64,000 nt of DNA from Calditrichota bacterium (GTDB lineage Bacteria > Electryoneota > AABM5-125-24 > Hatepunaeales > Hatepunaeaceae). Below, one piece after another: positions 14,233 to 30,590 of the stretch; positions within the stretch are counted from its first letter, which is position 1, and each line of letters begins with the position of its first letter. Location of the stretch: assembly GCA_016867835.1 (NCBI GenBank), contig VGIQ01000001.1, positions 10,094-74,093 of the forward strand, in the 5' to 3' direction. A program made the position numbers and the translations under genes. The notes under the pieces were generated by a model. It was given only the letters and a program-made list of their open reading frames with translations. It had not been told where the DNA came from and made no database searches.

Positions 14233-14299
14233 CCACAAAGAACACAAAGATCACAAAGATCATAGGGAATACTTGGTGTTCTTTGTGCTCTTCGTGGTG
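14230..14299. repeat. palindromic gene-junction repeat (AACTAACCACAAAGAACACAAAGA ... TGTTCTTTGTGCTCTTCGTGGTG), copy 1
   Basis: Imperfect 25-bp inverted repeat with an 18-bp loop. It begins within the stop codon of the upstream gene. The same family occurs at 16884, 17825, 18661 and 24202. Confidence 0.7.
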
Positions 14300-14310: not shown

Positions 14311-15057
14311 ATGGGCATTCTGAAAGGGAAAACCGCCATTGTCACCGGCGGGTCGTTAGGGATCGGCGCCTCAGTCGCCCTCAAACTCGCCTCCGACGGC
14401 GCCGATGTGGCGCTCAACTACCGCAAGCATGCGGACGAAGCCGAAGCTGTCGCCGAACAGATCCGCACCATGGGCCGCCGGGCGCTGGTGATCCAGGCCG
14501 ACACATCGTCCTTTGCCGATGCCGAAGCGATGGTCGCTCGCGTCAAGGCGGAATGGGGCCGGGTGGACATCCTCGTCTGTAACGCGGGGATCACCAGAGA
14601 CGCGGTGCTCTGGAAGATGACCGAAGAGCAGTGGGACGCGGTGATCGGGACGAACCTGAAGGGCTATTTCAATTACGTCCGCGCGGCTGCGCCGGTGATG
14701 CGCGAGCAGAAGTACGGGCGGATCGTCTGCGTCACCTCGATCAATGGGCTGCGCGGCAAGTTCGGCCAGTCGAACTACGCGGCCTCCAAAGCCGGCATCC
14801 ACGGGCTGGTGAAGAGCGCCGCCAAGGAATTAGGGCGGTCGGGCGTCACCGTCAACGCCGTCGCGCCGGGGATGATCCTGACCGATATGATGGCTGCGCT
14901 GCCGGAGGAGGTCAAGCAGAAGGCGGTGGACGAGACGGCGGTGGGCAGATTGGGGGAGCCGGACGACATCGCGCATGTGGTCAGTTTCTTCTGCAGTGAC
15001 TTCGCAAAGCATGTGACGGGGGAGATTATCAAGGTGGATGGGGGGCAGTATATCTGA
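14311..15057 (+). CDS. short-chain dehydrogenase/reductase (3-oxoacyl-ACP reductase-like; candidate hydroxyacyl-CoA dehydrogenase)
   Basis: TGGSLGIGASVA (TGxxxGIG), NAG, and Y..K catalytic motif (SNYAASKAG). 248 aa. Confidence 0.85.
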   Translation: MGILKGKTAIVTGGSLGIGASVALKLASDGADVALNYRKHADEAEAVAEQIRTMGRRALVIQADTSSFADAEAMVARVKAEWGRVDILVCNAGITRDAVLWKMTEEQWDAVIGTNLKGYFNYVRAAAPVMREQKYGRIVCVTSINGLRGKFGQSNYAASKAGIHGLVKSAAKELGRSGVTVNAVAPGMILTDMMAALPEEVKQKAVDETAVGRLGEPDDIAHVVSFFCSDFAKHVTGEIIKVDGGQYI

Positions 15058-15069
15058 CTTGATCTCCAT

Positions 15070-15250
15070 TCGCCCCCCCTTTGATTCCCCCCCGCAGAGC
15101 GGGGGGGAGAGAAGGCAGAAGCGCGCCTGCGACTATTACTCCCCCGCGCAAAGCGGGGGGGAGTGAAGATGGAACGTTGTAGTGTATTCGCAACCGCCTG
15201 ACAAGGGGGCAAGACGCTCTACTCCCCCGCGCAAAGCGGGGGGGAATTAA
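15070..15250. repeat. three GC-rich hairpin repeats (CCCCCGC-N4/5-GCGGGGG), two of them near-identical 27-mers (TACTCCCCCGCGCAAAGCGGGGGGGAG)
   Basis: Hairpins at about 15083-15103, 15138-15162 and 15220-15244. The same hairpin core occurs 4x in tandem inside the CDS at 19552-19712. Confidence 0.7.
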
Positions 15251-15264
15251 AGGGGGGGCTGGAT

Positions 15265-15702
15265 GTGCATTGGAGTGGAATTAGGGATGGAAAATCCCCA
15301 ATGAGAGCAATCCCAAAGCGCTTGCCTAAAACTAAGCCTCATTCCGTCAATTTCGCCCGCAGCCTACGCCGTAAGATGACTGACGCCGAGCGGCGGCTGT
15401 GGGCAAGGCTGCGGTCAGGGCGAATAAGCGCCAAATTCCGGCGTCAGGAGCCTATCGGATCTTACATCGTGGACTTTGCTTGCATAGAAAGAGGATTGGT
15501 CATAGAACTTGACGGCTCGCTGCATTACACCGATGAAGGCAAGAAGAGGGATGAAGTTCGGGACGCCTACCTGCGGTCGTTGGGATTCATGGTGTTGAGG
15601 TTCTCAGATCGGGATGTGATGAACAATATCGAGGGGGTATGTCAGGCGATCCTTGAGCAAGTTCAATGGAAAAACGAAGAAAAGGAAGAGTCAGGAAAAT
15701 GA
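15265..15702 (+). CDS. DUF559 / Vsr-like endonuclease-domain protein
   Basis: MTDAERRLWARLR ... KFRRQEPIGSYIVDFACIERGLVIELDGSLH is the DUF559 signature. Lower GC than neighbours. The start could be M at 15301. Confidence 0.7.
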   Translation: MHWSGIRDGKSPMRAIPKRLPKTKPHSVNFARSLRRKMTDAERRLWARLRSGRISAKFRRQEPIGSYIVDFACIERGLVIELDGSLHYTDEGKKRDEVRDAYLRSLGFMVLRFSDRDVMNNIEGVCQAILEQVQWKNEEKEESGK

Positions 15703-16886: not shown

Positions 16887-17366
16887 CCACAAAGGCACAA
16901 AGAACACAAAGACTTTCTTGTCATAAATGATAGAGATCATTCCTGAGGATATAGACCTGACCGGCAAGAATTTGTTGATGCGGCCTTTCAGGTTCACAAA
17001 GCGCTTGGGTCGGGGCTTCTTGAATCAGCCTACGAATCCTGCATCGCGCATGAGATTGTGTCGCGAGGGCTCGATGACAAGACGCAGGTGATTCTTCCCG
17101 TCATCTACAAAGGAGTCAGGATCGATGCGGGATTTCGATTGGATTTGGTCGGCGAAGACAAGGTCATGTCGAACTGAAGGCGGTAGAAGAACTCCACCTG
17201 ATTCGTGAAGCACAATTGATCACATATCTTCGACTCTCGGGCATTCGGCTTGGTTTCCTAATGAATTTCAACGCTAAACTTATTAAGAACGGAATTAGGC
17301 GAATTGTAGTATGATAAGTTTCCTCGAAACATATTCTTAGTGTTCTTCGTGCTCTTTGTGGTAACA
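16884..17366. repeat. palindromic gene-junction repeat, copy 2, with halves split by a ~420-bp insertion (GxxExxY pseudogene)
   Basis: Left half ACCACAAAGGCACAAAGAACACAAAGA at 16887-16913. Right half TTAGTGTTCTTCGTGCTCTTTGTGGTAAC at 17338-17366. The two halves are reverse complements. Confidence 0.65.
16927..17330 (+). pseudogene. GxxExxY-family (PD-(D/E)xK nuclease-like) gene disrupted by at least two frameshifts
   Basis: Frame 1 gives AAFQVHKALGSGLLESAYESCIAHEIVSRGL ... RIDAGFRLDLVGEDKV, then a stop. The conserved continuation VELKAVEELHLIREAQLITYLRLSGIRLGFLMNFNAKLIKNGIRRIVV is in another frame. The N-terminal DLTGK... is also out of frame. Confidence 0.6.
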
Positions 17367-17827: not shown

Positions 17828-17875
17828 CCACAAAGAGCACAAATAGCACAAAGAAATGTGATTTTGTGATCTTTA
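17825..17875. repeat. palindromic gene-junction repeat, copy 3 (degenerate right half)
   Basis: AACTAACCACAAAGAGCACAAATAGCACAAAGAAATGTGATTTTGTGATCTTT. Confidence 0.5.
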
Positions 17876-17899: not shown

Positions 17900-18667
17900 A
17901 TGGATTCCCATTATATCAAGATCGATCCGGACGACCACCGCCTCGACATCATTCTCTCCCATCCACCCGTCAACATTCTGACTGGCGCGGTGATGAAGGA
18001 GATGATCCGAGTTTTGCAGGACGCCTCCTCCGATCCCCACCTGCGAGCCGTCGTCATTCGGTCTGAGGGGAAAGCCTGGTCGGCCGGGGCGGACGTGAGT
18101 GAACACCTGCCCGGGCAGTTTGAACCCATGCTCGACACCTTCGGCGAATTGTGCGAACTGGTGCGCACCTATCCGGTGCCAACCGTTGCTGCGGTGGACG
18201 GGCTCTGCCTTGGCGGCGGCTGTGAACTGGCGCTAATGTGCGATTTTGTACTGGCGTCGGAGCGCGCCAAGTTCGGTCAGCCGGAGATCAAAGTCGGTGT
18301 CTTCCCTCCCGCGGCTTGTGCCCATTTCGCGATGAAGATGGGCTGGCAGAACGCGATGGAGGTGATCCTGACCGGGGATGTCTTCAGTGCAGAAGACGCA
18401 GCAAAAATGAAATTGGCAACGAAGGTGTTTCCGGTGGATCGTTTTTCGGACGAAGTGGACCGATTCGTTGACCGGATCATTTGCAACAGTGGAGTTGTCC
18501 TTCGAGTGGCAAAGAGAGCGGCGCTCGAAGGGATGCGCCTTTCGCCCGAAATGGCGGCACAGGAATCGGATCGCATCTATCGGCAGGAACTGATGACGAT
18601 GGCGGACGCGGTCGAGGGGCTAAACGCCTTTATGGAAAAGCGCGAACCAAACTGGAAAGACAACTAA
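17900..18667 (+). CDS. enoyl-CoA hydratase/isomerase (crotonase family; candidate dienoyl-CoA hydratase)
   Basis: RAVVIRSEGKAWSAGADV and GLCLGGGCELALMCDFVLASE are crotonase oxyanion-hole motifs. 255 aa. Confidence 0.8.
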   Translation: MDSHYIKIDPDDHRLDIILSHPPVNILTGAVMKEMIRVLQDASSDPHLRAVVIRSEGKAWSAGADVSEHLPGQFEPMLDTFGELCELVRTYPVPTVAAVDGLCLGGGCELALMCDFVLASERAKFGQPEIKVGVFPPAACAHFAMKMGWQNAMEVILTGDVFSAEDAAKMKLATKVFPVDRFSDEVDRFVDRIICNSGVVLRVAKRAALEGMRLSPEMAAQESDRIYRQELMTMADAVEGLNAFMEKREPNWKDN

Positions 18668-18725
18668 CCACTAGGCACGCAAAGAGCGCCAAGAATTCTT
18701 TGTGGTCTTTGTGTTCTTGGTGGTA
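18661..18725. repeat. palindromic gene-junction repeat, copy 4
   Basis: AACTAACCACTAGGCACGCAAAGAGCGCCAAGAA ... TTCTTTGTGGTCTTTGTGTTCTTGGTGGT. Confidence 0.6.
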
Positions 18726-18738
18726 AAAAGAGGCCGAA

Positions 18739-20025
18739 GTGTTTTCTCAATTCAAATCCTGGTATGAAGAACGGCACGCTTACGCTAAAGGGTGGAAGGC
18801 GCGCACCGGCGGCAAAGTGATGGGCTGCTTTTGCAGTTATGCCCCCGAGGAAATCCTCGTCGCGGCGAACTGGCTCCCGGCGCGCGTGTTAGGCGGTCAC
18901 CAGCCCCAGGACGTCGCCGAAAAATATATGTTCGGGATGTATTGTCCCTTTTCCCGCGACGTCCTGGCGCAAGGGCTTAAAGGGCGCTACGACTATCTCG
19001 ACGGCATCCTGCTGACGCAAAGTTGCATTCACCTGCGGCAGTCGTTCAACTCATGGCAGATGCACGTTCCGGTGCCGTTCAATTACTACATCTATATGCC
19101 GCAGAAGGTTCAGACGCCTCATGCAGTGCCCTATCACCGGAGCGAACTGGCGAAGTTTCGCGCGGCTCTGGAGGCCTACGACGGGACAACGCTAAGTGAA
19201 GACGACCTGAACCGCGGCATCGCCGTCGTCAACGAGAACCGCCGCTTGATGCGCGAAGTCTATGAGTTTCGCAAAGGCGACAGCCCCAAGGTGACCGGCA
19301 CCGAAGCGATGTGGATGACCACCTCGAGCATGTGGGTTGATAAGGAGGAACATTCCGCCGAACTGCGGCGGGTGCTGAAGGAACTGCCCAACCGAAGCCT
19401 TACCCGCCAGACCGGGGCGAAATTGATGATCATCGGCTCGGAGAACGACGACATCCCGTTCATCGAGATGGTCGAAAAGGTCGGCGCGACGGTGGTGATG
19501 GACGAACACTGCACCGGGACGCGGTATTTTTGGAATCAATGTGAGGTTCCCCCCCTTCAATCCCCCCCGCTCAGCGGGGGGGAAGTGCGCGAGGATAAAT
19601 CCCCCCCGCTTAGCGGGAGGGAAGTGCGCGAGGATAAATCCCCTCCGCTTAGCGGGAGGGAAGTGCGCGAGGATAAATCCCCCCCGCTTAGCGGGGGGGA
19701 CGAGAAGGGGGGGCGCGACCTGATGACCGCGATCGCCCAGCGCTACATCGACCGCCCGACCTGCCCGGTGAAAGACTGGGAGGATCGCACCCGCTTCGAG
19801 CATATCCTGCGTCTGGCGCGGGAGTGGGAGGTGCAAGGCGCCATCATCATCCAGCAGAAGTTCTGCGACCCGCACGAGTGCGACATGGTGCCGCTAAGAG
19901 CCTTCCTGAACGAGCACGACATCCCGAACCTGATGCTCGAGTTCGACGCTACCACGCCGCTGGGGCCGTTTAGGATCAGGGTAGAAGCGTTCTTGGAGAT
20001 GATCGGGCAGGAGGAGTTGTTTTGA
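18739..20025 (+). CDS. 2-hydroxyacyl-CoA dehydratase / benzoyl-CoA reductase subunit family protein (HgdB/BcrB-like), carrying an in-frame 4x13-aa repeat insertion
   Basis: GTG start. Family-typical Cys-containing N-terminal region (GCFCSYAPEEIL ... LTQSCIHLRQS) and C-terminal FCDPHECD. 428 aa. Confidence 0.65.
   Translation: MFSQFKSWYEERHAYAKGWKARTGGKVMGCFCSYAPEEILVAANWLPARVLGGHQPQDVAEKYMFGMYCPFSRDVLAQGLKGRYDYLDGILLTQSCIHLRQSFNSWQMHVPVPFNYYIYMPQKVQTPHAVPYHRSELAKFRAALEAYDGTTLSEDDLNRGIAVVNENRRLMREVYEFRKGDSPKVTGTEAMWMTTSSMWVDKEEHSAELRRVLKELPNRSLTRQTGAKLMIIGSENDDIPFIEMVEKVGATVVMDEHCTGTRYFWNQCEVPPLQSPPLSGGEVREDKSPPLSGREVREDKSPPLSGREVREDKSPPLSGGDEKGGRDLMTAIAQRYIDRPTCPVKDWEDRTRFEHILRLAREWEVQGAIIIQQKFCDPHECDMVPLRAFLNEHDIPNLMLEFDATTPLGPFRIRVEAFLEMIGQEELF
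19552..19712 (+). repeat. 4 tandem copies of a 39-bp unit (AAGTGCGCGAGGATAAATCCCCCCCGCTTAGCGGGAGGG) inside the CDS, each containing a CCCCCGC-TTAG-GCGGG hairpin
   Basis: Translates in frame as SPPLSGGEVREDK / SPPLSGREVREDK x4. Copies differ at 1-2 positions. The hairpin core is identical to the intergenic repeats at 15070-15250. Confidence 0.8.
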
Positions 20026-20026
20026 A

Positions 20027-20068
20027 TGTAGAATGCAGAATGTAGAATGTAGAATGAGGAACGAGGGT
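20027..20068. repeat. short tandem repeat (GAATGTAGAAT)n
   Basis: gaatgtagaatgcagaatgtagaatgtagaatgaggaacgagg lies directly after the stop of the preceding gene. Confidence 0.6.
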
Positions 20069-20137
20069 TATTGCTTTGGAGGGGTATAGGTGTTATCTTT
20101 CAGAAAATCAGAATTTCTGAACGGTAGAGGGATTACA

Positions 20138-20407
20138 ATGAAAGTTCAACTACGTTCGAGACGCCAGATCACGCTTCCGGAAGAGGCGGTCAGCGAGTTG
20201 GGAATCAATGAGGGGGATGAGTTCATCGTGAAAGTCGAGGGCGATTCGCTGCGCCTGCTGCCGGTCGTTACCATTCCTCGGGATGAAGCCTATCTCTTCA
20301 CACCGGAATGGCAGAGGGCGCTTCAAACCGCCGAGAAGGAACTGCGCGAGGGCGAATACGAGACCTTCGCGAGCGTCGATGACCTGCTGAAGGACCTGAA
20401 CGACTGA
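20138..20407 (+). CDS. AbrB/MazE/SpoVT-family antitoxin
   Basis: MKVQLRSRRQITLPEEAVSELGINEGDEFIVKVEGDSLRLLPV is a swapped-hairpin AbrB-type motif. The ORF could start at 20090. Its stop overlaps the next start (ATGA). Confidence 0.6.
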   Translation: MKVQLRSRRQITLPEEAVSELGINEGDEFIVKVEGDSLRLLPVVTIPRDEAYLFTPEWQRALQTAEKELREGEYETFASVDDLLKDLND

Positions 20408-20673
20408 TGCAGATCATCCGGCTGAGTCAATTCAAGCGGATGTGGAAGAAACTGCCTGCGGACGTTCAGGCGAGGGCAGCGAAAGCGATCCGCCTGCTTG
20501 CCGCCGACCGGTCGCATCCGTCGCTTGGCTTGAAGCGGCTGCAACGGCTGCCTCAATACTTGGAGGTGCGCATCGACCGCGACCACCGGTTGATATGCCA
20601 GATGGGGAGCGAGGTTATCGTGCTGGTGGCGGTAGGGAGGCATGAGGTGTTGGGGAGGGTGAGGCAAAAGTGA
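20407..20673 (+). CDS. RelE/ParE-superfamily toxin (type II TA)
   Basis: 88-aa basic protein translationally coupled to the antitoxin. The pattern LPADVQARAAKAIRLLAAD ... YLEVRIDRDHRLI ... VLVAVGRHE resembles the RelE/ParE fold. Confidence 0.5.
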   Translation: MQIIRLSQFKRMWKKLPADVQARAAKAIRLLAADRSHPSLGLKRLQRLPQYLEVRIDRDHRLICQMGSEVIVLVAVGRHEVLGRVRQK

Positions 20674-20737
20674 AGCTAAACATCATCATTCCTTCGGAAG
20701 ATGGAATTCAGATCTACATTTCTTTGTAAAAACAGGA

Positions 20738-21742
20738 ATGAAGGCACTTTATTCAAATTGCATTTTCTGCGGCTGCGACTTAGACGAGACCAATAGATCT
20801 CGCGAGCATATCGTTCCACAGATCATAATGGGATCATTCATCAGTCAAGATGTCTGCAGATGCTGTAACAGCAAATTGAGCGAGGCGGATAAGCTTATAC
20901 TGAATGATCCACGGATTATTCAAGCTATAAACTGTCTTGAACTTTCTGATATTCAAAATAACATCCTGAGAATAGGTGAAACCATAGGAACAGATACACA
21001 GGATGGCGCCGAAAGAAGGTTTCATATGAAGGATGGGCACCCTATACTTATTCCCAAGCCATCTTTTACGGGTGAAAGAGTCGCGGATATAGATAACACC
21101 TTGCCTCTACTGCGCACATTGTTATCCAGAGACAAGGAGCTGAATTGGCCAAACGAAAAGGCAGGCCGATACATCGGTGAAATCGTAACGCCAGAATTTC
21201 TCAAACTCAAGCCGCATGAGAGTATCGATCTTCGAGAAGCGGGATACTCAATCGAAATGAGGCAGATTGGAAACATAGAGACACATTTTCCTGCCATTTC
21301 GTTTCAAGATCATAGATTGATCGCTAAAATAATATACGAGATCAGTTTCTATCTGCTTTCGCCCGAGATCGCTGAGTCAGCGATGAAAGATCTTGACTAT
21401 TATAGAGATGTAGCTTACGGAAGTATTGAAAGAGAAGAAGGCAGATTGTTTACAAGATCGGTGGAGCTTCTTAACGAACCCAACTATCTTCATAGGATTC
21501 AGATCTCATTCTCTGCCTCAAGCTTTCTTACGGTTGACATCGACCTCTTTGCAAGTGTAAACTATCACGCTATCATCAGAACTGATAGAACCTATCCGCT
21601 GCCAATTCTAAATTCCCGGCAGGTTACCGCTGTCGGGTTGGGGATGACCTTTAACGATACATCGAATAGACACTTTGCGATAAGGTACTTCAATGATGCA
21701 GATTGGGCGGTCGAAAGATTCGATGACGGAGAAGAACAGTGA
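20738..21742 (+). CDS. HNH-endonuclease-domain protein with ~270-aa uncharacterised C-terminal region
   Basis: CIFCGCDLDETNRSREHIVPQ ... CRCCNSKLSE is the HNH motif (CxxC, catalytic His in EHIVP, second CxxC). 334 aa. The region is markedly AT-richer than the window. Confidence 0.65.
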   Translation: MKALYSNCIFCGCDLDETNRSREHIVPQIIMGSFISQDVCRCCNSKLSEADKLILNDPRIIQAINCLELSDIQNNILRIGETIGTDTQDGAERRFHMKDGHPILIPKPSFTGERVADIDNTLPLLRTLLSRDKELNWPNEKAGRYIGEIVTPEFLKLKPHESIDLREAGYSIEMRQIGNIETHFPAISFQDHRLIAKIIYEISFYLLSPEIAESAMKDLDYYRDVAYGSIEREEGRLFTRSVELLNEPNYLHRIQISFSASSFLTVDIDLFASVNYHAIIRTDRTYPLPILNSRQVTAVGLGMTFNDTSNRHFAIRYFNDADWAVERFDDGEEQ

Positions 21743-22890
21743 CAATATCAACCCAAATGATCAATACTTGGACAGCTTCTTGGAAGCAACTGAGATACCT
21801 CGAGCGAGTGGGAGCATTACTTGCCATAGCAACTCTGACCGCCTCCTTATTTTATTGGGCGGGGAATGGATTCGCCGAGATACAAAATACACTTGGCTAC
21901 TATCCATCTGGAGTTGAAGAAGCGCTAGAGCAAAACCGCGAACTGGACCTAAAATATCCAACACGCCCGGGTCTAAGCAAGGATCTGGGAGAGGTTGCGG
22001 GAGTCTTGCTTTTCTTCATCGGAATTTGTCTAATCTTGTCATTGATTGATGCAGCCGTGAAATTGCCAATCTTGGCGGGATTGTTGGTCGCCCCAATATC
22101 TTTCCTATCGGGCAAGGGAACCACACATGAATACCTCATTCTATCCTTGCTCAACAATAACGCTATTGGTGGCAGAGGCGTGCTTTCACTTATCATGATA
22201 ACGCTTTCCGGAGTATTTGCGATGAGGGCTTTTCGGAAATCTTGGAGATTAAATTTCTCATTGCTAACTGCACTTGGAGTATTCGCGTCTTGGATAGGTA
22301 ATTTCATGGGTCAAGAATACAGCTATCGCGCCGGTATTTTGACGGCAGCTGCTGGAATTCTCCTTATCATAGCGCCAAAATCACTTAGGGATTCTTGTCT
22401 GACTTCCATCGAAGTGACTGGCGAAATATCTAAAGGTAGGCTTGACAGCTTGATTCAAAAAGCCACATTGTCTACCAGAATATTTGGCATTGCCTATTCT
22501 ATTCTTGGGCTTATTCTTGTTCTGGGAGTTGCAGGAACTATGGGAGATGAGTTTCTACAAGGAATCAAGAGAGGGGCACCTGTTAGTGATTCAAGCGGAA
22601 TCTTAGTGCTGGCCGTCATTCAGATATTGATAGGGATAGCTTTGCTTATGCTCTCTTTGATATCATCTAATCCAGCAATGCGGCGTCGATATCAGTTTTC
22701 CATCATCATAGGGATCATCTGGATCTTATTGCCTTATGAGGCACTTGACTTGTTAGCCCGATTGACCGATCCCGGCTTAAATGCTTTTGTAAAACTGTTG
22801 ACGTCTATTGGAATGATTATTGTACTCAAGACCGCAATTAGAGCTCGGGACGCCATTTATATGAATGTCAGCAATTCCAAGGAAACATAA
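21739..22890 (+). CDS. polytopic membrane protein (about 8-10 predicted TM helices), unknown function
   Basis: GTG start overlapping the upstream stop (GTGA). Repeated hydrophobic helices (VGALLAIATLTASLFYW, VLLFFIGICLILSLI, LPILAGLLVAPISFL, ILLIIAP, IFGIAYSILGLILVLGVAG, ILVLAVIQILIGIALLMLSLI, IIIGIIWILLPY, IGMIIVL). Low GC. Confidence 0.6.
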   Translation: MTISTQMINTWTASWKQLRYLERVGALLAIATLTASLFYWAGNGFAEIQNTLGYYPSGVEEALEQNRELDLKYPTRPGLSKDLGEVAGVLLFFIGICLILSLIDAAVKLPILAGLLVAPISFLSGKGTTHEYLILSLLNNNAIGGRGVLSLIMITLSGVFAMRAFRKSWRLNFSLLTALGVFASWIGNFMGQEYSYRAGILTAAAGILLIIAPKSLRDSCLTSIEVTGEISKGRLDSLIQKATLSTRIFGIAYSILGLILVLGVAGTMGDEFLQGIKRGAPVSDSSGILVLAVIQILIGIALLMLSLISSNPAMRRRYQFSIIIGIIWILLPYEALDLLARLTDPGLNAFVKLLTSIGMIIVLKTAIRARDAIYMNVSNSKET

Positions 22891-22911: not shown

Positions 22912-24204
22912 ATGTCCACCTACCCCACCGAACCCCTGAAGTGCTGGGCTAAAGCCAAGGAACTTCGGGATAACTACTATCGCGACTACGCCACCGCCCA
23001 CGAGTGCGGCGGGTTGCGCTGGACCGGCGGCGCTTGGTCGTTCGACGCCATCCCCGCCGGGCTAGGGCGCGACGTCTGGCCCATCACCGGCGAGCCTTAC
23101 GGCGCGTCGATGGCCTTCAACAAGCCATTCAGCCAGCGCGCCCTCGAAGCCGCCGAAGCCAAGGGCTGGGCGCGCGATCTCTGCAGTTATATGCGCAACT
23201 ACTGGGGGTCGATGTATCTCGACGAGTTCAACTTCGGCGGGAAGTATCCGAAGCCCGACTTCGCCTTTCAGGATCATATCTGCTGCTCCCACGCCAAGTG
23301 GTATCAGCATGTCGCGGAATACAAGCAGATCCCCTACTTTTGTATCGACGTTTCGGTCGGTCCCTATCACCTGATCGACGACCACAAACTGAACTTCGTC
23401 GTCGGGCAGATGCACGAGTCGATTGACTTCCTCGAGCGCATCACCGGCCGCCGCTACGACGACGAACTGCTGATCGAAGCGGTGCAGAACGAGACGCGAG
23501 CCACCTCCGCCTGGGCCGAGGTCTGTGCCCTCAACAAGGCGATCCCGGCACCGCTCGACGAAAAGACGATGTATTCGCTCTACGTCCTCGGGACGCTCAA
23601 CAAGTCGAAGAAGGAGTTCGCCGACTTCTACGAGGAATTGCGGGACGAGGTTGCCGACCGCGTGGCGCGCGGCATCGCTGCCGTTCCGAGCGAGCGTTGC
23701 CGGCTGATGTCCGATACCCAGCCGCCGTGGGGCTTCTTGAAGATATTCCGCTACCTCGAAGGCTTCGGCGCGGTCTCGGTCGGGAGCCTTTACACCTTCG
23801 CCCTAATCGGCATCTGGGAAGAGAAGCCGGACGGCAGTTGGGGCGCGCGGACAACTCCGATGGCCCTCGGCTTGCCGATGGATACCCGCGATCAGGCGCT
23901 CCGGATACTGGCGGACTGGAACCTCTCCAAACCCGAATGGCAGCATTTCTATGACGCAAGTTTGAAGTCGAAGATGATGCTGCGGATCGTCAAGGAATGG
24001 AAACTCGACGGCGTCATGCTGCACCTGAATCGCGGCTGCGAAGGCCTCTCCTGCGGCATAATGGAAAACCGCCTCGCCATCGCCGAAGCCGGCGTGCCGG
24101 TGATGACCTTCGAAGGCAATATGGGCGACGAGCGGGAGTTCGACGAAGCGAAGACCAAAGACCGCATGGATGCGTTCATGGAGACGCTGGGACTTAGGAA
24201 TTAA
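22912..24204 (+). CDS. 2-hydroxyacyl-CoA dehydratase / benzoyl-CoA reductase subunit family protein (HgdA/BcrC-like)
   Basis: [23 protein letters not shown] and [10 protein letters not shown] are Cys-motif regions typical of the HGD-D family. 430 aa. Confidence 0.65.
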
Positions 24205-24270
24205 CCACAAAGAACACAAAGATCACAAAGATATCCTGGTGCTCTTGGTGTGCTTTGTGGTGAGAATAAT
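24202..24270. repeat. palindromic gene-junction repeat, copy 5
   Basis: AATTAACCACAAAGAACACAAAGATCACAAAGA tatcc TGGTGCTCTTGGTGTGCTTTGTGGTGAG. Confidence 0.65.
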
Positions 24271-24286
24271 CATTAGGGATAGATAA

Positions 24287-25084
24287 TTGATTACAGCCGG
24301 ACTTGACCTGGGGTCGAAGACCACCAAGGTCGTCATCCTGCGCGACGGCGAAGTGCTGGCTCGCGTGAAGCGGTTTTCGGGGTTCGAACAAGAGGTCGTC
24401 GCGGCTGAAGCCTTGCGGGAAGCCTGCGCCCTCGCTGGCATCGCCGAGAGCGAACTGTCCCGTATCGCGGCAACCGGAGCCGGCCGCCGGGTAGCGCCAT
24501 TCGCGCAGGATCTCCTGACCGAGGTAGGCGCCGCGGCGCGGGGCGCCATCGCTCGCAACGACGCAGTGCGCACTGTGCTCGACGTTGGAGCCGAGGAAGG
24601 ACGCGCCATTCTGGTCAATCCCGACGGCCGGGTGAAGGACTTTGCGGTCAATGAGAAGTGCGCCGCCGGAGCGGGCACGTTTATCGAGTCGATGTCGCGC
24701 GCCCTCGAAGTGAAACTCGAGGAGTTCGGCCCGCTCGCGCTGACTTCGCAGCAGGCGGTGCCGATGAATGCCCAATGCGCAGTATTCGCCGAGAGCGAGG
24801 TGGTATCGCTGCTCCACGCCCGGACGCCGAAGCAGGACATCGCTCGCGCAGTGCTCGACGCCATCGCCAGCCGCATCGTCTCGATGGCCCGGCGAGTCAG
24901 CATCACACCGGCGGTCGTGCTAATGGGAGGGATGGCTCACAATACCGGCTTCATTGTATCGCTGAAGCGGACGCTCGAGATGGAGATCGAAATCCTATCC
25001 GATCCTGAGTTTGTCCCGGCCGAGGGAGCCGCGTTCCACGCCGCCGAGCGCTTTGCCGAAGCCGAAGTGCCGGCGGTGGCGTAG
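24287..25084 (+). CDS. BadF/BadG/BcrA/BcrD-type ATPase (dehydratase activator / reductase ATP-binding subunit), copy 1
   Basis: MITAGLDLGSKTTKVVIL is the acetate/sugar-kinase-fold N-terminus. NEKCAAGAGTFIE is the [4Fe-4S]-bridging Cys region. 265 aa. Non-ATG (TTG) start. Confidence 0.75.
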   Translation: MITAGLDLGSKTTKVVILRDGEVLARVKRFSGFEQEVVAAEALREACALAGIAESELSRIAATGAGRRVAPFAQDLLTEVGAAARGAIARNDAVRTVLDVGAEEGRAILVNPDGRVKDFAVNEKCAAGAGTFIESMSRALEVKLEEFGPLALTSQQAVPMNAQCAVFAESEVVSLLHARTPKQDIARAVLDAIASRIVSMARRVSITPAVVLMGGMAHNTGFIVSLKRTLEMEIEILSDPEFVPAEGAAFHAAERFAEAEVPAVA

Positions 25085-25085
25085 G

Positions 25086-25135
25086 AAGTAAGCGGGTAGG
25101 CGAGTAAGCGGGTAAGCGGGTAAGTGAACAGGCGG
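25086..25135. repeat. short tandem repeat (GTAAGCGG / GTAAGCGAG)n
   Basis: gtaagcgggtaggcgagtaagcgggtaagcgggtaagtgaac. An inverted copy of the motif lies at 25530-25550 (cttactcgcttactc). Confidence 0.6.
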
Positions 25136-25144
25136 GAGTAGAAA

Positions 25145-25521
25145 ATGGGGACGGTCTTCAGGAAGGTGGAGGATATAGAGGTCTGGAAGCGGGCATGCAG
25201 GCTTGCGGTCGATCTCTATTCCCTCTGCGATCAGGAGCCGCTCGCCAAGGATTGGGGGCTTCGAGATCAGTTGCGGCGTGCGGCAGTTTCCATTGCATCG
25301 AACATCGCGGAGGGATATGAGCGAAACTCGCAAGCGGAATTCAGGAGATATCTCTTGATCGCCAAAGGTTCCTGCGTGAATTGAAGACGCAACACTACAT
25401 CCTGCAGGCATCCGGTAAGATTAGCGAGGCAGATTTGACAACCCTGATCGAACGCTGCATAGAACTATCTCAGATGATCGGCAGCCTCGCCTCCGCCATT
25501 CGCAAACAACATCTTGCATAA
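25145..25521 (+). pseudogene. four-helix-bundle (23S rRNA intervening-sequence-type) protein gene with a -1 frameshift
   Basis: The ORF ends ...[16 protein letters not shown]. The conserved continuation [43 protein letters not shown] is in the next frame (shift at about 25375-25381). Confidence 0.5.
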
Positions 25522-25568
25522 TAACTAACGCTTACTCGCTTACTCATTCAAATCAACAACAGTCCGCA

Positions 25569-26459
25569 TTGGAGGAGTCAGCAATGTCAGTCGAATACTG
25601 GCGGTGGAAGGAATACAACTGGCGCAACGAAGCGGTCGATCCGCGCGGCGGAGGCATCCTCTCCGGAGGCGTCGATGTCGGATCGGTCTCATCGCAGGCG
25701 GTGGTGCTCTACGAAGGCAATCTCTACGCCTACAGCAATATGCGCACCGGCTCCGACTCGCCTGACAGCGCCCGCAAGGCGTTCGAGTGGGCGCTCGAAG
25801 GCACGGGACTGCAGGTTGGCGATATCCCCTTCATTGTCGGCACCGGTTACGGGCGGGTCAATGTGCCGTTTGCTCATAAAGCCATCACCGAGATTGCCTG
25901 TCATGCCCGCGGTGCCAATTATATGTATGGCCCGGCTGTCCGGACGCTGCTCGATATGGGCGGGCAGGACTGCAAGGCGATCCGCTGCGACGAACGGGGC
26001 AAGGTGACGAACTTCCTGATGAACGACAAGTGCGCTGCCGGGACCGGACGCGGGATGGAAGTCTTTGCCGATTTACTCGCAATCCCCATTGAGCAGGTCG
26101 GCGAAATGTCGTTCCAGGTCGAGAGCGAGCCGACGCCGGTCTCTTCGACCTGTGTCGTCTTCGCCAAGACCGAAGCCGCCGGGCTGCTCCGGTCCGGCTG
26201 GCCGAAGAACCTTGTCCTCGCGGCCTACTGCTCGGCGATGGCGCATCGCGTCGTTTCGCTGATCGAGCGGCTCGGTATGGAAGGCGGGTTCGCGATCACC
26301 GGCGGCATTGCCAAGAACAGCGGCGTCGTCCGGCGCCTCGAAAAGGAACTCGGCGTTACCTCGATGACCAGTTCCTACGACACTCAGATCGCGGGTGCGC
26401 TCGGCGCGGCACTATTTGCGAAGGCGCTGCTTGAGAAGGGCTTGGGGCTCAAGGCTTAG
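25569..26459 (+). CDS. BadF/BadG/BcrA/BcrD-type ATPase, copy 2 (distinct paralogue)
   Basis: GVDVGSVSSQAVVL and NDKCAAGTGRGME. 296 aa. The likely start is ATG at 25584 (MSVEYW). Confidence 0.75.
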   Translation: MEESAMSVEYWRWKEYNWRNEAVDPRGGGILSGGVDVGSVSSQAVVLYEGNLYAYSNMRTGSDSPDSARKAFEWALEGTGLQVGDIPFIVGTGYGRVNVPFAHKAITEIACHARGANYMYGPAVRTLLDMGGQDCKAIRCDERGKVTNFLMNDKCAAGTGRGMEVFADLLAIPIEQVGEMSFQVESEPTPVSSTCVVFAKTEAAGLLRSGWPKNLVLAAYCSAMAHRVVSLIERLGMEGGFAITGGIAKNSGVVRRLEKELGVTSMTSSYDTQIAGALGAALFAKALLEKGLGLKA

Positions 26460-26484
26460 GGCTCAAGATCACTCAAGGGGTGAG

Positions 26485-26870
26485 ATGATGTCAAGGGACT
26501 ACCGGAAACTTCGGGTATTTCGATCGGCGCAAAGTCTTGCCCTTATGGTCTATGAATCGACCAGACTATTTCCAAATGAAGAGTTGTTCGGAGCAACGAA
26601 CCAATTGCGCCGGGCAGCGCTATCAGTTCCAACTAACTCCGTTGAGGGCTCTCATCGCACCAGTCGCGGAGATTGCTTGAGATTCCTCGACGTTGCGATG
26701 GGGTCGCTTGCAGAAACTGGATACCTGATCGACTTCGCTGCCAGTCTCGGCCATTTGCCGCAAGACAAACGGGACAATCTGCTTGCCCAATAGACTGAAT
26801 GCGCCCAACTCCTCGGCGCGCTTATCAATTCACACCGCAGGGCGAATGATTCCAAAATTCTTAAGCCCTG
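26485..26870 (+). pseudogene. second four-helix-bundle (IVS-type) protein gene, interrupted by an in-frame TAG at 26791-26793
   Basis: MMSRDYRKLRVFRSAQSLALMVYE ... NSVEGSHRTSRGDCLRFLDVAMGSLAETGYLIDFA is the family core. The reading frame continues after the TAG (TECAQLLGALIN...) as the expected C-terminal helix. Confidence 0.45.
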
Positions 26871-26905
26871 AACCTTAAGCCTTAAGCCCTAAGCCATGAG
26901 CCTAA
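26860..26905. repeat. short tandem repeat (CTTAAGCC)n
   Basis: cttaagccctgaaccttaagccttaagccctaagccatgagcc. Confidence 0.6.
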
Positions 26906-27189: not shown

Positions 27190-27252
27190 GGCAAGTATTA
27201 AGTATCAAGTGCCAAGTATCAAGTATCAAGTGCCAAGTATCAAGTATCAAGT
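27190..27252. repeat. short tandem repeat (CAAGTATCAAGTG)n
   Basis: gtatcaagtgccaagtatcaagtatcaagtgccaagtatcaagtatcaagtgtcaagtg. The same motif occurs at 29735-29770 and 61823-61852. Confidence 0.7.
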
Positions 27253-27257
27253 GTCAA

Positions 27258-29732
27258 GTGGGCCGGATAACCATTGTTGTTGATGGGCGGGAGGTCGAGG
27301 TTCAGACGGGCGGCCGCCTGAGACTCGAACTGATCGCGTCCGGCATCTACTTGCCCGGACTGTGCGATCATCCCGACCTTGATCCATTTCGGCCCTTCCA
27401 ATGGTCTGAATCGGTCTGGCGGGGAAATGCAGAATACGGAATGAGGAATGAGGAAGGCGGACTTGATGATGGAACACTGCATTCCAGCCACCTCAATCCG
27501 CACTGCGACCTCTGTCTGGTCTCCATTGAGGGCGTCGGGCTGGTGCGGTCGTGCGATGCGATCGTCCGCGAGGGAATACGCGTCCGGACTAATGGCGACG
27601 ATATCACCCGGGCGCGTCGAGACGCTTTGAAGGCGATCCTCGCCCGTCATCCCCACGCCTGCCTTACCTGCGCCCAACGGCACGGCTGCGACCGACTCAG
27701 TTGCAGCATGAACGTTCCGGTCCTCGAACGCTGCTGTGAATTGCTGGGCCGCTGCGAGATCGGCCGGGTCTCGGAGTGGGTAGGCATCCCTCCTGATACG
27801 CCTCCCTATCGCAATGAAGGTCGTCCTGCCGTAATCGATGAACCGCTCTACCTGCGCGACTACGAACTTTGCATTAGTTGCACCCGCTGCGTCCGCATAT
27901 GCCGCGACGTCCGCGGCGTCGATGCGCTCGGCGCGTCGATCGTCAAATCGGGTGTTGTCGTCGGGACGAACGAACCGACACTTGCCGACTCGGACTGCCG
28001 CTTCTGCGGCGCCTGTGTCGAAGTTTGCCCCACCGGCGCCTTGCGCGACAAGCCCGGGATAGCGCCTCTGATAGAAGGGCAGGCGCCTTGCGTGGAATCG
28101 TGCCCGCTCGGTATCGACATCCCCGGCTACCTCGCTGAAATCGCGGCTGGTCGTCCTTTGAATGCGTTAGAGATCATTCGCGACCGCGCTGCGCTGCCGG
28201 GCGTGCTCGGCTACGCCTGCTTTCATCCCTGTGAAGCGAACTGCCGCCGGACGGCGCTCGGCGAGCCAGCCTCGATCTGCCTCCTGAAGCGGTTCGCCAG
28301 CGACGTTGCAAGCGAATGTGAAGTCCACGCGCCTAAAGTGCCTCCGTCCGGTCGCCGGGTGGCCATCGTCGGCTCCGGGCCGGCCGGTCTGGCCGCTGCC
28401 TATGACCTCTTGCGGATGGGCCATGCGGTCACGGTCTTCGACCGCAATGCCCGCCCCGGAGGGATGCTCCGTGAAGCGATTCCCAACTTCCGTCTGCCCG
28501 ATGCGGTCATCGACCGCGATCTGAAATATCTCAAAGACCTGGGAATGGGTTACCACCCCGGCGGGGAGTTGGGACGCGATTTCACTCCTGAAGACCTGCA
28601 CGATTTGAATTTCGACGCTCTGTTAGTGGCAATAGGGCTGAGTCAGACTGCCCGGCTCGGTGTGCCCGGCGAAGAGCATCCTGCAGTAATTAGAGGGCTT
28701 GACTTTCTAAGGTCCATTTCAAGCGGGAATCCCCCCGAACTGGAGGGTGATGTCATTGTGGTGGGCGGAGGCGCGGTGGCGGTCGACTGTGCGATGAGCG
28801 CGCTCCGGGTTGGCGCGTCGAATGTCCGCATGGTCTGCCTTGAAAGCCGTGAAGAGATTCCGGCGCATCCCGACGAACTCCGTCTGGCGCAGGACGAGGG
28901 GATCGCCATCGATTACGGCTGGGGCGTCGAGTCATTCAACGTCCGGGACGACGAATTGACCGGTATCCGACTGAAGAAGTGCACCCGCGTCTTCGACCCC
29001 GCCGGTCGGTTCAGCCCGCTCTATGATACTACGACCACGAAAGACCTCCCCGTCCGGAGTGTGATCGTCGCCATCGGGCAACGGCTTGGGATAGACCGCC
29101 GGTTTCTGACCGGTAAGGGATTGTTCACTTGCGGGGATATGGTTACCGGACCGACGACCATCGTCGAAGCGATGGCGGATGGACGTCGCGCCGCACGAGA
29201 GGTTGACCGGTTTCTGGGCGGCAAGGGCGAAGTGTCGAAGAGTATTGCCAGGTCAGCCGGGGGCAGCCTTGGTCGCATCGGCGGCTTTGCAAGCCTTGAC
29301 CGCTCACACCCTCTGGAACAGCCTGTTTCGGAGCGCACCACCAACTTCGACCCGATCCAGGTCGGCTTCGACGATAGTGCAGCCCGCCTGGAAGCAAGCC
29401 GCTGCCTGCAGTGCCATTTGCGCGCCAGGATCAGTCCCTCACCTTTGCCTCCGGATGAATGGCGCCGGTTCAAACCCGAAATGGTTGACGACGTGCCGGC
29501 ACTCGAGGGCGTCCTGATTCTTGCCGATGCCGACCGCAAGACGATTCGTATTAGCGGCGCCTCGGACCTGAGAACCCTCTTCCGTGAAGCCCACCACGAA
29601 AATCCCGATGCCGTATGGTGCCGGTGGGAGATAGATCCGCTCTATACCAAACGGGAGTCGGAACTCCTCGCGGCGCATCTGGCTGCGCACGGCGCGATGC
29701 CGGTGTCGGGGGAATTGGATGATCTCTTCTGA
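27258..29732 (+). CDS. multidomain iron-sulfur flavoprotein: NuoG/HoxU-like 2Fe-2S N-terminus + 2x[4Fe-4S] ferredoxin + GltD/NfnB-like FAD/NAD(P)H oxidoreductase (candidate ferredoxin:NAD(P)H oxidoreductase)
   Basis: GTG start. N-terminal GRITIVVDGREVEV ... CDHPDL. 4Fe-4S motifs CISCTRCVRICRD and CRFCGACVEVCPTG. Dinucleotide folds RVAIVGSGPAGLAAAYDL and VIVVGGGAVAVDCAMSA. 824 aa. Confidence 0.65.
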   Translation: MGRITIVVDGREVEVQTGGRLRLELIASGIYLPGLCDHPDLDPFRPFQWSESVWRGNAEYGMRNEEGGLDDGTLHSSHLNPHCDLCLVSIEGVGLVRSCDAIVREGIRVRTNGDDITRARRDALKAILARHPHACLTCAQRHGCDRLSCSMNVPVLERCCELLGRCEIGRVSEWVGIPPDTPPYRNEGRPAVIDEPLYLRDYELCISCTRCVRICRDVRGVDALGASIVKSGVVVGTNEPTLADSDCRFCGACVEVCPTGALRDKPGIAPLIEGQAPCVESCPLGIDIPGYLAEIAAGRPLNALEIIRDRAALPGVLGYACFHPCEANCRRTALGEPASICLLKRFASDVASECEVHAPKVPPSGRRVAIVGSGPAGLAAAYDLLRMGHAVTVFDRNARPGGMLREAIPNFRLPDAVIDRDLKYLKDLGMGYHPGGELGRDFTPEDLHDLNFDALLVAIGLSQTARLGVPGEEHPAVIRGLDFLRSISSGNPPELEGDVIVVGGGAVAVDCAMSALRVGASNVRMVCLESREEIPAHPDELRLAQDEGIAIDYGWGVESFNVRDDELTGIRLKKCTRVFDPAGRFSPLYDTTTTKDLPVRSVIVAIGQRLGIDRRFLTGKGLFTCGDMVTGPTTIVEAMADGRRAAREVDRFLGGKGEVSKSIARSAGGSLGRIGGFASLDRSHPLEQPVSERTTNFDPIQVGFDDSAARLEASRCLQCHLRARISPSPLPPDEWRRFKPEMVDDVPALEGVLILADADRKTIRISGASDLRTLFREAHHENPDAVWCRWEIDPLYTKRESELLAAHLAAHGAMPVSGELDDLF

Positions 29733-29780
29733 GACTCCAAGTATCAAGTATCAAGTGTCAAGTATCAAGAGCAGAGAGCA

Positions 29781-30354: not shown

Positions 30355-30483
30355 GGAATGTATCGCGAAATCGGCTTCGAGGTGATGATCGTCCCTTTCG
30401 ACCCGGTAGAGTGCGAAGGCTGCTGCAAGGAGTGCTTCAGCGAAGGCGAGTCGGGGGCGATGGTAGTCTATACGAAGAAGTGA
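30355..30483 (+). CDS. small Cys-rich ORF (42 aa; CEGCCKEC) of unknown function
   Basis: MYREIGFEVMIVPFDPVECEGCCKECFSEGESGAMVVYTKK. A longer ORF from 30223 overlaps the GNAT gene in another frame. Weak call. Confidence 0.2.
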   Translation, partial: GMYREIGFEVMIVPFDPVECEGCCKECFSEGESGAMVVYTKK

Positions 30484-30590
30484 GCGAGTAAGTGAGTAAG
30501 CGAGTAAGCGAGACATTTTCGCCTATGCTCCCACAAACTCGGCTGCCCGCACACTCGTTCACTCGTCTACTCGCTCACTCGCACACTTTC
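30481..30590. repeat. inverted pair of (GAGTAAGC)n short tandem repeats flanking a 36-bp spacer
   Basis: gagtaagtgagtaagcgagtaagcgag ... cactcgttcactcgtctactcgctcactcgc. Confidence 0.6.

Follow-up and report, generated by a model that had tools for sequence, protein, structure and literature searches.

A tandemly repeated palindromic element in frame within bzdN, a predicted gene for benzoyl-CoA reductase, in a Calditrichota bacterium

Introduction

"Selfish DNA" within protein-coding genes is a known phenomenon, and we describe a new example of it: a 165-bp GC-rich palindrome inside bzdN, a predicted benzoyl-CoA reductase gene of a Calditrichota bacterium. The gene lies in a stretch of 64,000 nucleotides (contig VGIQ01000001.1 of assembly GCA_016867835.1, positions 10,094 to 74,093 of the forward strand), hereafter called the window. 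The closest described systems are the Rickettsia palindromic elements (RPEs) of Ogata et al. (2000, 2002), which are palindromic repeats inserted in frame in genes (PMC10969869, PMC3184786), and the repetitive extragenic palindromes (REPs), which have been found in open reading frames (ORFs). The cases listed by Di Nocera et al. (2013, PMC3733652) are in frame and lie in flexible linkers, with repair proteins and tRNA synthetases among the hosts. REPs and RPE-type repeats are defined by a tetranucleotide at the end of the palindrome, GTAG and CGTC, respectively (PMC3733652). The element in bzdN is a functional match to the RPEs and to the REP-in-ORF cases, and is set apart by the lack of the defining REP/RPE tag, by the lack of target duplications like those of miniature inverted-repeat elements, by its homopolymer architecture and by tandem growth within the gene.

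Mobile GC-rich hairpins that colonise coding sequence are also known from yeast mitochondrial genes, as GC clusters and byp elements. The latter are organellar, the ribosome skips them and the frame need not be kept, whereas all bzdN alleles found here keep it. Judging from the sequences, the new aspect is the occurrence of single-hairpin copies (45 or 57 bp) at the same codon of bzdN in related Calditrichota, with the closest orthologues empty.

Results and Discussion

The element was read directly from the sequence as a near-perfect palindrome, which starts exactly at a codon boundary and covers 55 codons. It is composed of the following parts.

19549..19713, plus strand: whole inserted palindromic element (165 bp), peptide PPLQ-[SPPLSGG/R-EVREDK]x3-SPPLSGG-DEKGG
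19549..19570, plus strand: left terminus C7-TTCAAT-C7-GC with the outer C7 at 19549-19555, matching the left end of the intergenic copy and copies in other genomes
19562..19582, plus strand: hairpin 1, C7GC-TCA-GCG7 (sequence reading, hairpin pattern scan)
19583..19621, plus strand: 39-bp unit 1, 18-nt spacer and hairpin 2 with right arm GGGAGGG (sequence reading, TRF)
19622..19660, plus strand: 39-bp unit 2, spacer and hairpin 3 with arms CCCCTCC / GGGAGGG (sequence reading, TRF)
19661..19699, plus strand: 39-bp unit 3, spacer and hairpin 4 with full C7/G7 arms (sequence reading, TRF)
19691..19713, plus strand: right terminus GC-G7-ACGAGAA-G7, inverted repeat of the left terminus, with the outer G7 at 19707-19713

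The hairpin has a 9-bp stem, the 18-nt spacer of each 39-bp unit is AAGTGCGCGAGGATAAAT, and any two units differ by 1-2 substitutions. Tandem Repeats Finder (TRF) reported the array at 19559-19700 with period 39, 3.6 copies, 95% matches and a score of 256. Its translation within the ORF 18739-20025 reads ...PPLQSPPLSGGEVREDKSPPLSGREVREDK..., and the insert-derived peptide would be, for example, EVREDKSPPLSGR. Sequence reading and TRF both confirm the original prediction of a tandem array in frame with its host gene. Of the four 39-bp copies proposed, the four hairpins were found, but only three full units, preceded by a leading hairpin, and the hairpin loop measures 3 nt instead of the four assumed.

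The hairpin pattern was matched 14 times in the window compared to 1.24 matches expected, and none of 100 shuffled sequences reached as many, so that chance does not account for it. All 14 matches are confined to two places, 15089-15242 and 19564-19697. Similarly, 13 of the 34 C or G runs of at least six nucleotides in the window lie inside the genic element and an intergenic one, and seven C7/G7 runs fall inside the coding sequence (CDS) of bzdN. In RNA folding, 19540-19725 (186 nt) formed one long stem with −126.4 kcal/mol (z = −9.1). Since the 165-bp element folds end to end, the whole of it is itself a palindrome and not a mere row of hairpins. An Rfam scan of the element yielded no intron or ribozyme; the best match, mir-188, reached 27 bits at a gathering score of 72 and is attributed to chance. 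No plus-strand terminator was found in a terminator scan, which returned only weak minus-strand matches of a hairpin plus ATTTAT.

The second place holds an intergenic copy of the same element family, located 4.3 kb upstream of the genic one.

15073..15258, plus strand: intergenic copy, 186 bp, with shared termini and hairpins

Its neighbours are an SDR gene (14311-15057) on one side and a DUF559 gene (15265-15702) on the other; the copy begins with CCCCCCCTTTGATTCCCCCCCGC and ends with GCGGGGGGGAATTAAAGGGGGGG. Three hairpins are separated by unique spacers of 34 and 61 nt and framed by 23-nt terminal inverted repeats (TIRs). Genic and intergenic copies have the same termini, C7-N6-C7GC ... 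GCG7-N6-7-G7, at both ends, which bears out the predicted identity of the two repeats, and the first spacer of the intergenic copy is similar to the genic 18-nt spacer. As DNA, the intergenic copy folds end to end with −69.1 kcal/mol (z = −9.3). It is lacking at the corresponding place in the related locus L001. A CRISPR-like reading of this copy was ruled out: its three 21-nt repeats have unequal spacers of 34 and 61 nt, and the entire element is palindromic.

The host gene is part of a complete bzd operon, comprising oah, SDR, thiolases, a dienoyl-CoA-hydratase-like ECH gene, bzdN, bzdO and two BcrAD_BadFG ATPase genes including bzdQ. The reductase genes are listed below.

18739..20025, plus strand: bzdN, benzoyl-CoA reductase bzd-type subunit N, 428 aa (ORF, Pfam HGD-D, TIGR03190, PDB 8s02_B)
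22912..24204, plus strand: bzdO, catalytic partner subunit (TIGR03191, 738 bits at a cutoff of 449)
24287..25084, plus strand: bzdP-like BcrAD_BadFG ATPase gene (BcrAD_BadFG match)
25569..26459, plus strand: bzdQ, BcrAD_BadFG ATPase gene (436 bits at a cutoff of 380)

By its sequence matches the host gene is assigned to BzdN, the BcrC-type [8Fe-9S] double-cubane subunit of ATP-dependent benzoyl-CoA reductase (BCR). The NCBIfam equivalog TIGR03190 is matched with 497.1 bits at a cutoff of 453.8, and this score replaces the HgdB/BcrB-like assignment made originally. The product also matches Pfam HGD-D and the PDB chain 8s02_B, "BzdN" (E=1e-143). Both family matches consist of two stretches, and all three matches break exactly at the inserted segment. 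BzdN is described as a BcrC-type subunit with an [8Fe-9S] double-cubane cluster, whose ligands in Aromatoleum are Cys36/73/100/263/293/327 (PMC11971306). With these align C32/C69/C96/C258/C342/C376 of the window protein, which are invariant in an alignment of 59 sequences; altogether, more than 100 invariant columns of this alignment are kept. As far as the sequence can tell, the enzyme is most likely still functional, and nothing suggests decay of bzdN.

In the alignment to 8s02_B the query halts at residue 268 (chain 273) and restarts at 326 (chain 277), so that 57 residues replace 3. The insert starts 10 residues past the equivalent of Cys263 and ends 16 before Cys293, just ahead of BzdN helix 278-288. 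Of the 120 best homologues nearly all have a length of 374-376 aa, and this insert or an N-terminal extension accounts for the few of greater length. From the difference between 428 aa and the mostly 374 aa of the orthologues a net insert of 54 aa follows, not the 52 aa given originally; the segment as an insertion relative to the family and its length of a multiple of three (165 bp) stood up to the comparison. AlphaFold with 59 sequences gave a model with a mean pLDDT of 81.9 and a TM score of 0.94 against 8s02_B (normalised to the target). Residues 281-324 have values below 50 and no secondary structure. The insert, placed between residues 273 and 277 of 8s02_B as the proposed structural modelling demanded, is thus predicted to form a disordered loop, with the rest of the BzdN fold modelled confidently, in accordance with the loop originally proposed. 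An overlap of the insertion site with the CoA-binding residues 269-271 and 281-288 was considered and discarded, as these numbers in PMC11971306 refer to BzdO and not to BzdN. No paper on the MbdONPQ complex (PDB 9gai), by which the loop could be placed relative to the ATPase module, was found in the literature.

Comparison of the bzdN site among relatives revealed shorter inserts. The Calditrichota genes of P0005/P0123 (L004, L083-87) have a single hairpin at the same codon, exactly 45 bp between ...ETH and YDRL..., and those of P0004/P0122 (L001-3), also Calditrichota, have a single-hairpin copy of 57 bp at the same codon. These copies encode SPPLSG/PPASGG; the peptide differs among the carriers while the DNA architecture is retained. 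In the nearest relatives, P0002 and P0003 (86% identity outside the insert), and in more than 20 other loci including L005 the site is empty and reads N-x-x-x-P-Q|x-D-R. All 25 bzdN loci from a protein-based metagenome scan, used as empty sites, are without the insert. Orthologues with the same peptide at the same position in unrelated lineages had been named as evidence for an ancestral feature. This applies by half: copies at the same codon exist, as a single hairpin, and their carriers are related Calditrichota. As the carriers are not unrelated and most orthologues, the nearest among them, are insert-less, the segment remains an insertion rather than a trait of the family. With single-hairpin copies in related Calditrichota and empty closest orthologues, the insertion is either older or recurrent, and only the 39-bp amplification appears, from the sequences compared, to be private to the lineage of the window.

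The locus L083, from the metagenome-assembled genome (MAG) VGIO01, is syntenic with the window; the synteny extends to the MazE/ParE pair that follows bzdN and to the array of 7-mers at the stop codon. Its element is identical to the ends of the window element at 39 of 45 positions (87%), compared to 73-77% for the flanking CDS. The BzdN of the window is NCBI entry MBM3327868.1; its paralogue or orthologue P0123, with a 15-aa insert, has the accession MBM3327190.1 and is encoded on the VGIO01 contig Ga0194125_10018014. As the two accession numbers are so near each other, a single MAG with two syntenic bzdN loci of about 79% identity is suggested, pointing to either a duplicated cluster or two co-binned populations.

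To describe the dispersed copies, the core CCCCCCCGCNNAGCGGGGGGGA was searched in one genome per species; the outer C-run 3-9 nt upstream was not demanded. The scan gave 52 loci, with exact core matches on six contigs of MAG VGIO01. The outer C-run head was present in 9 of 9 matches in the Calditrichota MAGs VGIO01 and MWJR01, in 8 of 10 in the unclassified MAG CAYYHI01 and in 6 of 9 in Anaerolineae. Single cases were seen in Chromatiales, Burkholderiales (the isolate Ramlibacter monticola among them) and Planctomycetota, and none among the 8 Clostridia hits, regarded as ordinary terminators. Core hits in Clostridia/Acutalibacteraceae (L012, L023, L027, L031, L039, L041, L048) show a conserved terminator-like hairpin followed by TTTCATTTTCGGGCATAGCCCTA; evidently, a single orthologous locus recurs here in many gut MAGs, with no relation to the element family.

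The heads in Calditrichota are typically followed by tandem hairpin-plus-spacer units with periods of 29, 32, 36, 39 and 59, and from this recurrence we conclude that tandem growth is a habit of the family. Minimal copies of 44-47 bp consist of the two termini alone. At the other end of the range, 6.7 copies of a 29-bp unit (GCCGCAAGCGGGGGG + AGAAGCAAGCAACA) follow a family head in L016 (2043-2250), just downstream of a Dus gene. This is the largest family array found here; several frames are open, and no gene is recognisable. No description of the family was found in the literature, in searches that were not exhaustive.

Further copies lie in frame in other genes of Calditrichota, Anaerolineae, Burkholderiales (among them the cultured Ramlibacter monticola) and Chromatiales.

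L016 617-1846: Dus tRNA-dihydrouridine synthase, two 36-bp units, about 42 residues replacing 5 between 1vhn 229|235
L019 5613-8000: valyl-tRNA synthetase (ValRS), about 35 residues replacing 6 between 1gax 597|604
L029 305-2743: MutS2, element between domains III and V
L015 1387-3753 and L021 1584-3893: PMT-type (PMT_2) glycosyltransferases, element in frame
L022 2-1324 and L025 67-915 (minus strand): family-4 uracil-DNA glycosylases (UDGs), element in the N-terminal linker
L049 3418-5058 (minus strand): another HGD-D protein (paralogue), 30-bp units

In all these genes the element peptide is of the form PP..PP..GG..GG. Whatever the frame and the strand, C7 and G7 runs are translated as Pro-Pro and Gly-Gly. 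Of the six reading frames, 3 are open in the window array and all 6 in a minimal element such as that of L001 (44 bp). With PP/GG coding in every frame and all six frames open in the minimal element, members of the family can persist in gene loops.

Compared with the RPEs, the likeness covers short palindromes that are both intergenic and in frame in unrelated housekeeping genes, fold-compatible loops, an element peptide and hosts that are apparently functional. In-frame, fold-compatible insertion in unrelated genes was found here for BzdN, Dus, ValRS, MutS2, PMT_2, UDG and the HGD-D paralogue. RPEs differ in being about 105-150 bp long, in residing in AT-rich, obligate intracellular Rickettsia and in ending in CGTC (PMC3733652). 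The present family, in contrast, has C7/G7 runs and copies as small as 44 bp, its hosts are free-living (Calditrichota, Anaerolineae and others), and within a gene it is amplified in tandem. Given the C7/G7 composition and the host phylum, a sequence relationship to RPE-1 to RPE-10, with their conserved element peptide, is implausible.

With REPs and REPINs the family shares dispersed GC-rich stem-loops of 20-40 bp, often clustered and sometimes in ORFs at flexible linkers; here, the 21-nt hairpin is dispersed over two loci of the window and six VGIO01 contigs. The original assignment to the REP kind holds as a functional analogy, but not for the defining GTAG or CGTC tag as a family feature. 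GTAG flanks none of the genic hairpins; in the intergenic copy CTAC adjoins one hairpin, on the wrong side. CGTC (minus strand) abuts hairpin 4 only, and the linkers in other copies (TTTAATT, TTTAGTT, AGAAA, AAAT) contain neither tag. In addition, the neighbourhood of the copies (2.5 kb around 16 of them) held neither a RAYT nor a TIRYT, and the double C-run/G-run architecture of a "hairpin within a hairpin" as well as spacer-containing tandem arrays are not typical of REPs. Judged by eye, no more than about 5 of 14 Calditrichota copies conform to GGGGWSAS, a motif of TIRYT-associated TIRs (PMC3733652), which we take as a lead only.

TIRs of about 23 nt, copies of 165-186 bp in the window that form one long stem-loop, presence/absence polymorphism and occasional in-frame ORF fusions resemble bacterial miniature transposable elements with inverted repeats (MITEs) such as Correia/NEMIS, ERIC, Nezha, RUP and BOX. 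Here, however, neither a target-site duplication nor a cognate insertion sequence (IS) was found, and minimal copies of 44-47 bp are below the usual MITE size. Intragenic tandem repeats with a variable number of units, known as contingency loci, are similar in their unit of a multiple of three and in slippage that changes the copy number in frame, producing a variable low-complexity segment. They differ in that the unit here stems from a dispersed palindromic element and in that the host is a cytoplasmic redox enzyme, not a surface protein; a change in copy number has so far not been seen.

We consider it probable that a small non-autonomous palindromic repeat entered a short surface loop of bzdN, was amplified in 13-codon steps and is now a tolerated passenger, not an adaptation. 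An element with the termini C7-N6-C7GC ... GCG7-N7-G7 and a core 9-bp GC hairpin would have landed in the loop; in the relatives, the bzdN copy is a single hairpin of 45-57 bp. In the lineage of the window the hairpin-plus-spacer unit of 39 bp would have multiplied, with slippage during replication or unequal recombination as the most probable cause, for which the near-identical 21-nt hairpins could act as direct repeats. Selection would pass only products of a multiple of three. The outcome would be four hairpins, translated into a 54-aa disordered loop of Pro, Gly, Ser, Glu, Arg and Lys just before BzdN helix 278-288 and presumably neutral for the enzyme.

Several observations weigh against this explanation. 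There is no target-site duplication; L083 and L004 gained exactly 45 bp between the H and Y codons, and no common direct repeat flanks the other copies. The 55 ORFs found up to 2.5 kb away from 16 copies showed no enrichment of a transposase, RAYT, Y1_Tnp or other family. An autonomous IS with the same TIRs was found neither in the window nor in the fetched loci, the ISL3 and DDE_Tnp_1 transposases of L083 being not checked. With neither a target-site duplication nor a transposase found, we infer mobility from the distribution alone. The periods of the three genic arrays (39, 36 and 30) are all multiples of three, compared to 2-3 of 6 elsewhere, a difference that is not statistically significant. 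In a neighbour-joining tree with 500 bootstraps, from which the loop was excluded, the insert-bearing bzdN genes were monophyletic in 0 of 500, and the window gene grouped with the insert-less P0002/3/7/9 at 90% bootstrap. This non-monophyly implies repeated hits at one codon, several precise losses or recombination; any of these may explain the presence at the same codon. Finally, the four-hairpin allele is found on one metagenome contig only, and a metagenome scan with the 39-mer spacer gave 0 hits elsewhere. A search of the 60-aa insert against 5.8 billion proteins returned nothing at E<=10, with a query that is too short and of low complexity, and exact look-ups of the window's BzdN found nothing either, in collections in which the source contig seems not to be searchable.

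Given the single contig and the missing 39-mer hits, short-read assembly may have influenced the copy number. That the element is real and its four hairpins an artefact of metagenome assembly is nonetheless improbable in our view. The array of about 140 bp is near read length, but the units can be told apart by substitutions at 19644 and 19696 and by the loop of hairpin 1 (TCA, not TTA), the frame is kept over the total length, and the downstream domain is intact. A loop that evolved in the host, as a low-complexity segment of BzdN ancestral in a Calditrichota subclade and lengthened by ordinary intragenic tandem duplication without a mobile repeat, is harder still to reconcile with the data, and we consider it highly unlikely. 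It would agree with the PP..GG peptide at the same codon in three related lineages and with the flanking "ETH" residues common to L001 and L004. However, it leaves unexplained a near-perfect DNA palindrome whose termini and spacer match the intergenic copy 4.3 kb upstream, the same head in copies of unrelated genes and genomes, insert-less orthologues interleaved in the gene tree, and peptides that differ between carriers with a retained DNA architecture.

A function of the insert, be it as a regulatory RNA or DNA structure of the bzd operon, as a contingency locus in which homopolymer slippage turns BzdN on and off, or as a new docking or tether loop near the [8Fe-9S] cluster, would fit the very stable mRNA structure (−126 kcal/mol), the seven C7/G7 runs within the CDS, the position 10 residues after Cys263 and 16 before Cys293, and the identity of 87% between the window element and L083 compared to 73-77% in the flanking CDS. 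We hold such a co-option to be unlikely. Gain or loss of units is always in frame, so that it cannot switch the gene on or off. The proposed on/off hotspot by copy number is thereby reduced to length variation, and only slippage by ±1 in the seven C7/G7 runs could switch bzdN off. These runs are interrupted in units 1-2 and in L083 (GGGAGGG, CCCCTCC, CCCTCGC, GGAGTGG), as in decay rather than maintenance. Moreover, the single-hairpin alleles are identical across 6 and 3 assemblies, a weak test due to their retrieval by exact protein match, most orthologues are insert-less, and the insert is predicted to be unstructured. Removal or skipping of the segment, by an intein-like, intron-like or translational bypass process that leaves a mature protein without the insert, is exceedingly improbable. 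A precedent exists in Magnusiomyces mitochondria, where GC-rich hairpin insertions in coding regions are bypassed. Here, in contrast, the three alleles have net lengths of 45, 57 and 162 bp, all of them multiples of three, and contain no stops in the host frame; a skipped element would need neither. Neither an intron nor a ribozyme was matched in Rfam, and an intein would have to be far longer. The intein, intron and bypass readings were rejected because of size and frame conservation.

A wider reading goes beyond the tolerated passenger in bzdN. It would take the copies together as an undescribed mobile palindrome family that crosses phyla and is adapted to genes, with six-frame PP/GG linkers, growth in multiples of codons and a role as a source of disordered enzyme loops; this we regard as doubtful. 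It would span Calditrichota, Anaerolineae, Burkholderiales, Chromatiales and Planctomycetota, in which copies were seen, and would be mobilised by an enzyme.

Surroundings of the bzd cluster

At almost every gene boundary of the bzd cluster a short tandem array with units of 7-9 nt in 3-10 copies was observed. The coordinates are 14234-14262, 16888-16912, 17335-17360, 17829-17854, 18697-18724, 20024-20056, 24206-24232, 25088-25136, 25529-25545, 26446-26467, 26860-26903, 27192-27259, 29738-29769, 30479-30512 and 30548-30587, and such arrays are also present in L001 and L083-L085. Examples are CACAAAGAx x3, CAAGTAT x9.7 and GTAAGCGG x4.6. They often form inverted pairs around one gene, as for the ECH gene (17900-18667), an IVP gene (about 26500-26800) and a remnant at 16913-17334; inverted arrays would allow long stems in the 5' and 3' parts of the transcripts. 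In related loci the arrays occupy the same positions with other unit sequences: L001 has 8-mers throughout, and at the stop codon of bzdN GAATGCA x4.7 in L083 is found vs GAATGTA x4.7 in the window. These arrays may be more unusual than the bzdN insert itself.

The gaps between the bzd genes are filled by small, selfish-looking genes, each flanked by inverted short arrays. Among these are 23S_rRNA_IVP four-helix-bundle genes (26395-26793, intact; 25145-25500, with a frameshift), a small ORF (16913-17334) that seems to be frameshifted as well and by eye resembles a GxxExxY/PD-(D/E)XK-type protein, and the DUF559 endonuclease-like gene 15265-15702, 7 nt past the intergenic palindromic element. 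Similar small genes occur elsewhere (L001 7644-8027, 8555-8770 and 14024-14392; L083 4108-4488). Between bzdN and bzdO lies a low-GC island at 20090-22890 (0.475 vs about 0.59), which contains four genes: 20090-20407 codes for a MazE-like antitoxin, 20407-20673 for a ParE-like toxin, 20738-21742 for an HNH_5 protein and 21739-22890 for a multi-pass membrane protein of 383 aa without a Pfam match. The MazE/ParE pair also follows bzdN in L083, L085 and L087; L001 has other small genes there. In the slot upstream of the thiolase gene, L083 has ISL3-family and DDE_Tnp_1 transposases (1-2305), the window has the palindromic element and DUF559, and L001 has a 367-aa ORF without a Pfam hit. The slot looks like a recurrent insertion hotspot.

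Conclusion

Selfish DNA inside protein-coding genes, classically represented by the RPEs of Rickettsia and a few REP families, would with this element also be found in free-living anaerobes. The affected host is a mechanistically demanding radical enzyme, and the design of the element, with PP/GG arms in every frame, would explain its own tolerance. The predicted 54-aa disordered loop near the [8Fe-9S] cluster would represent a natural permissive site for the engineering or tagging of BzdN. For the annotation of MAGs, length-variable BCR subunits are to be expected, and frameshift errors and misassembly are likely to originate in the C7/G7 runs and the 39-bp units. The bzdN case by itself opens no long-standing question. 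If the reading of a cross-phylum family were true, such elements would be a general and ongoing source of disordered loops in core enzymes.

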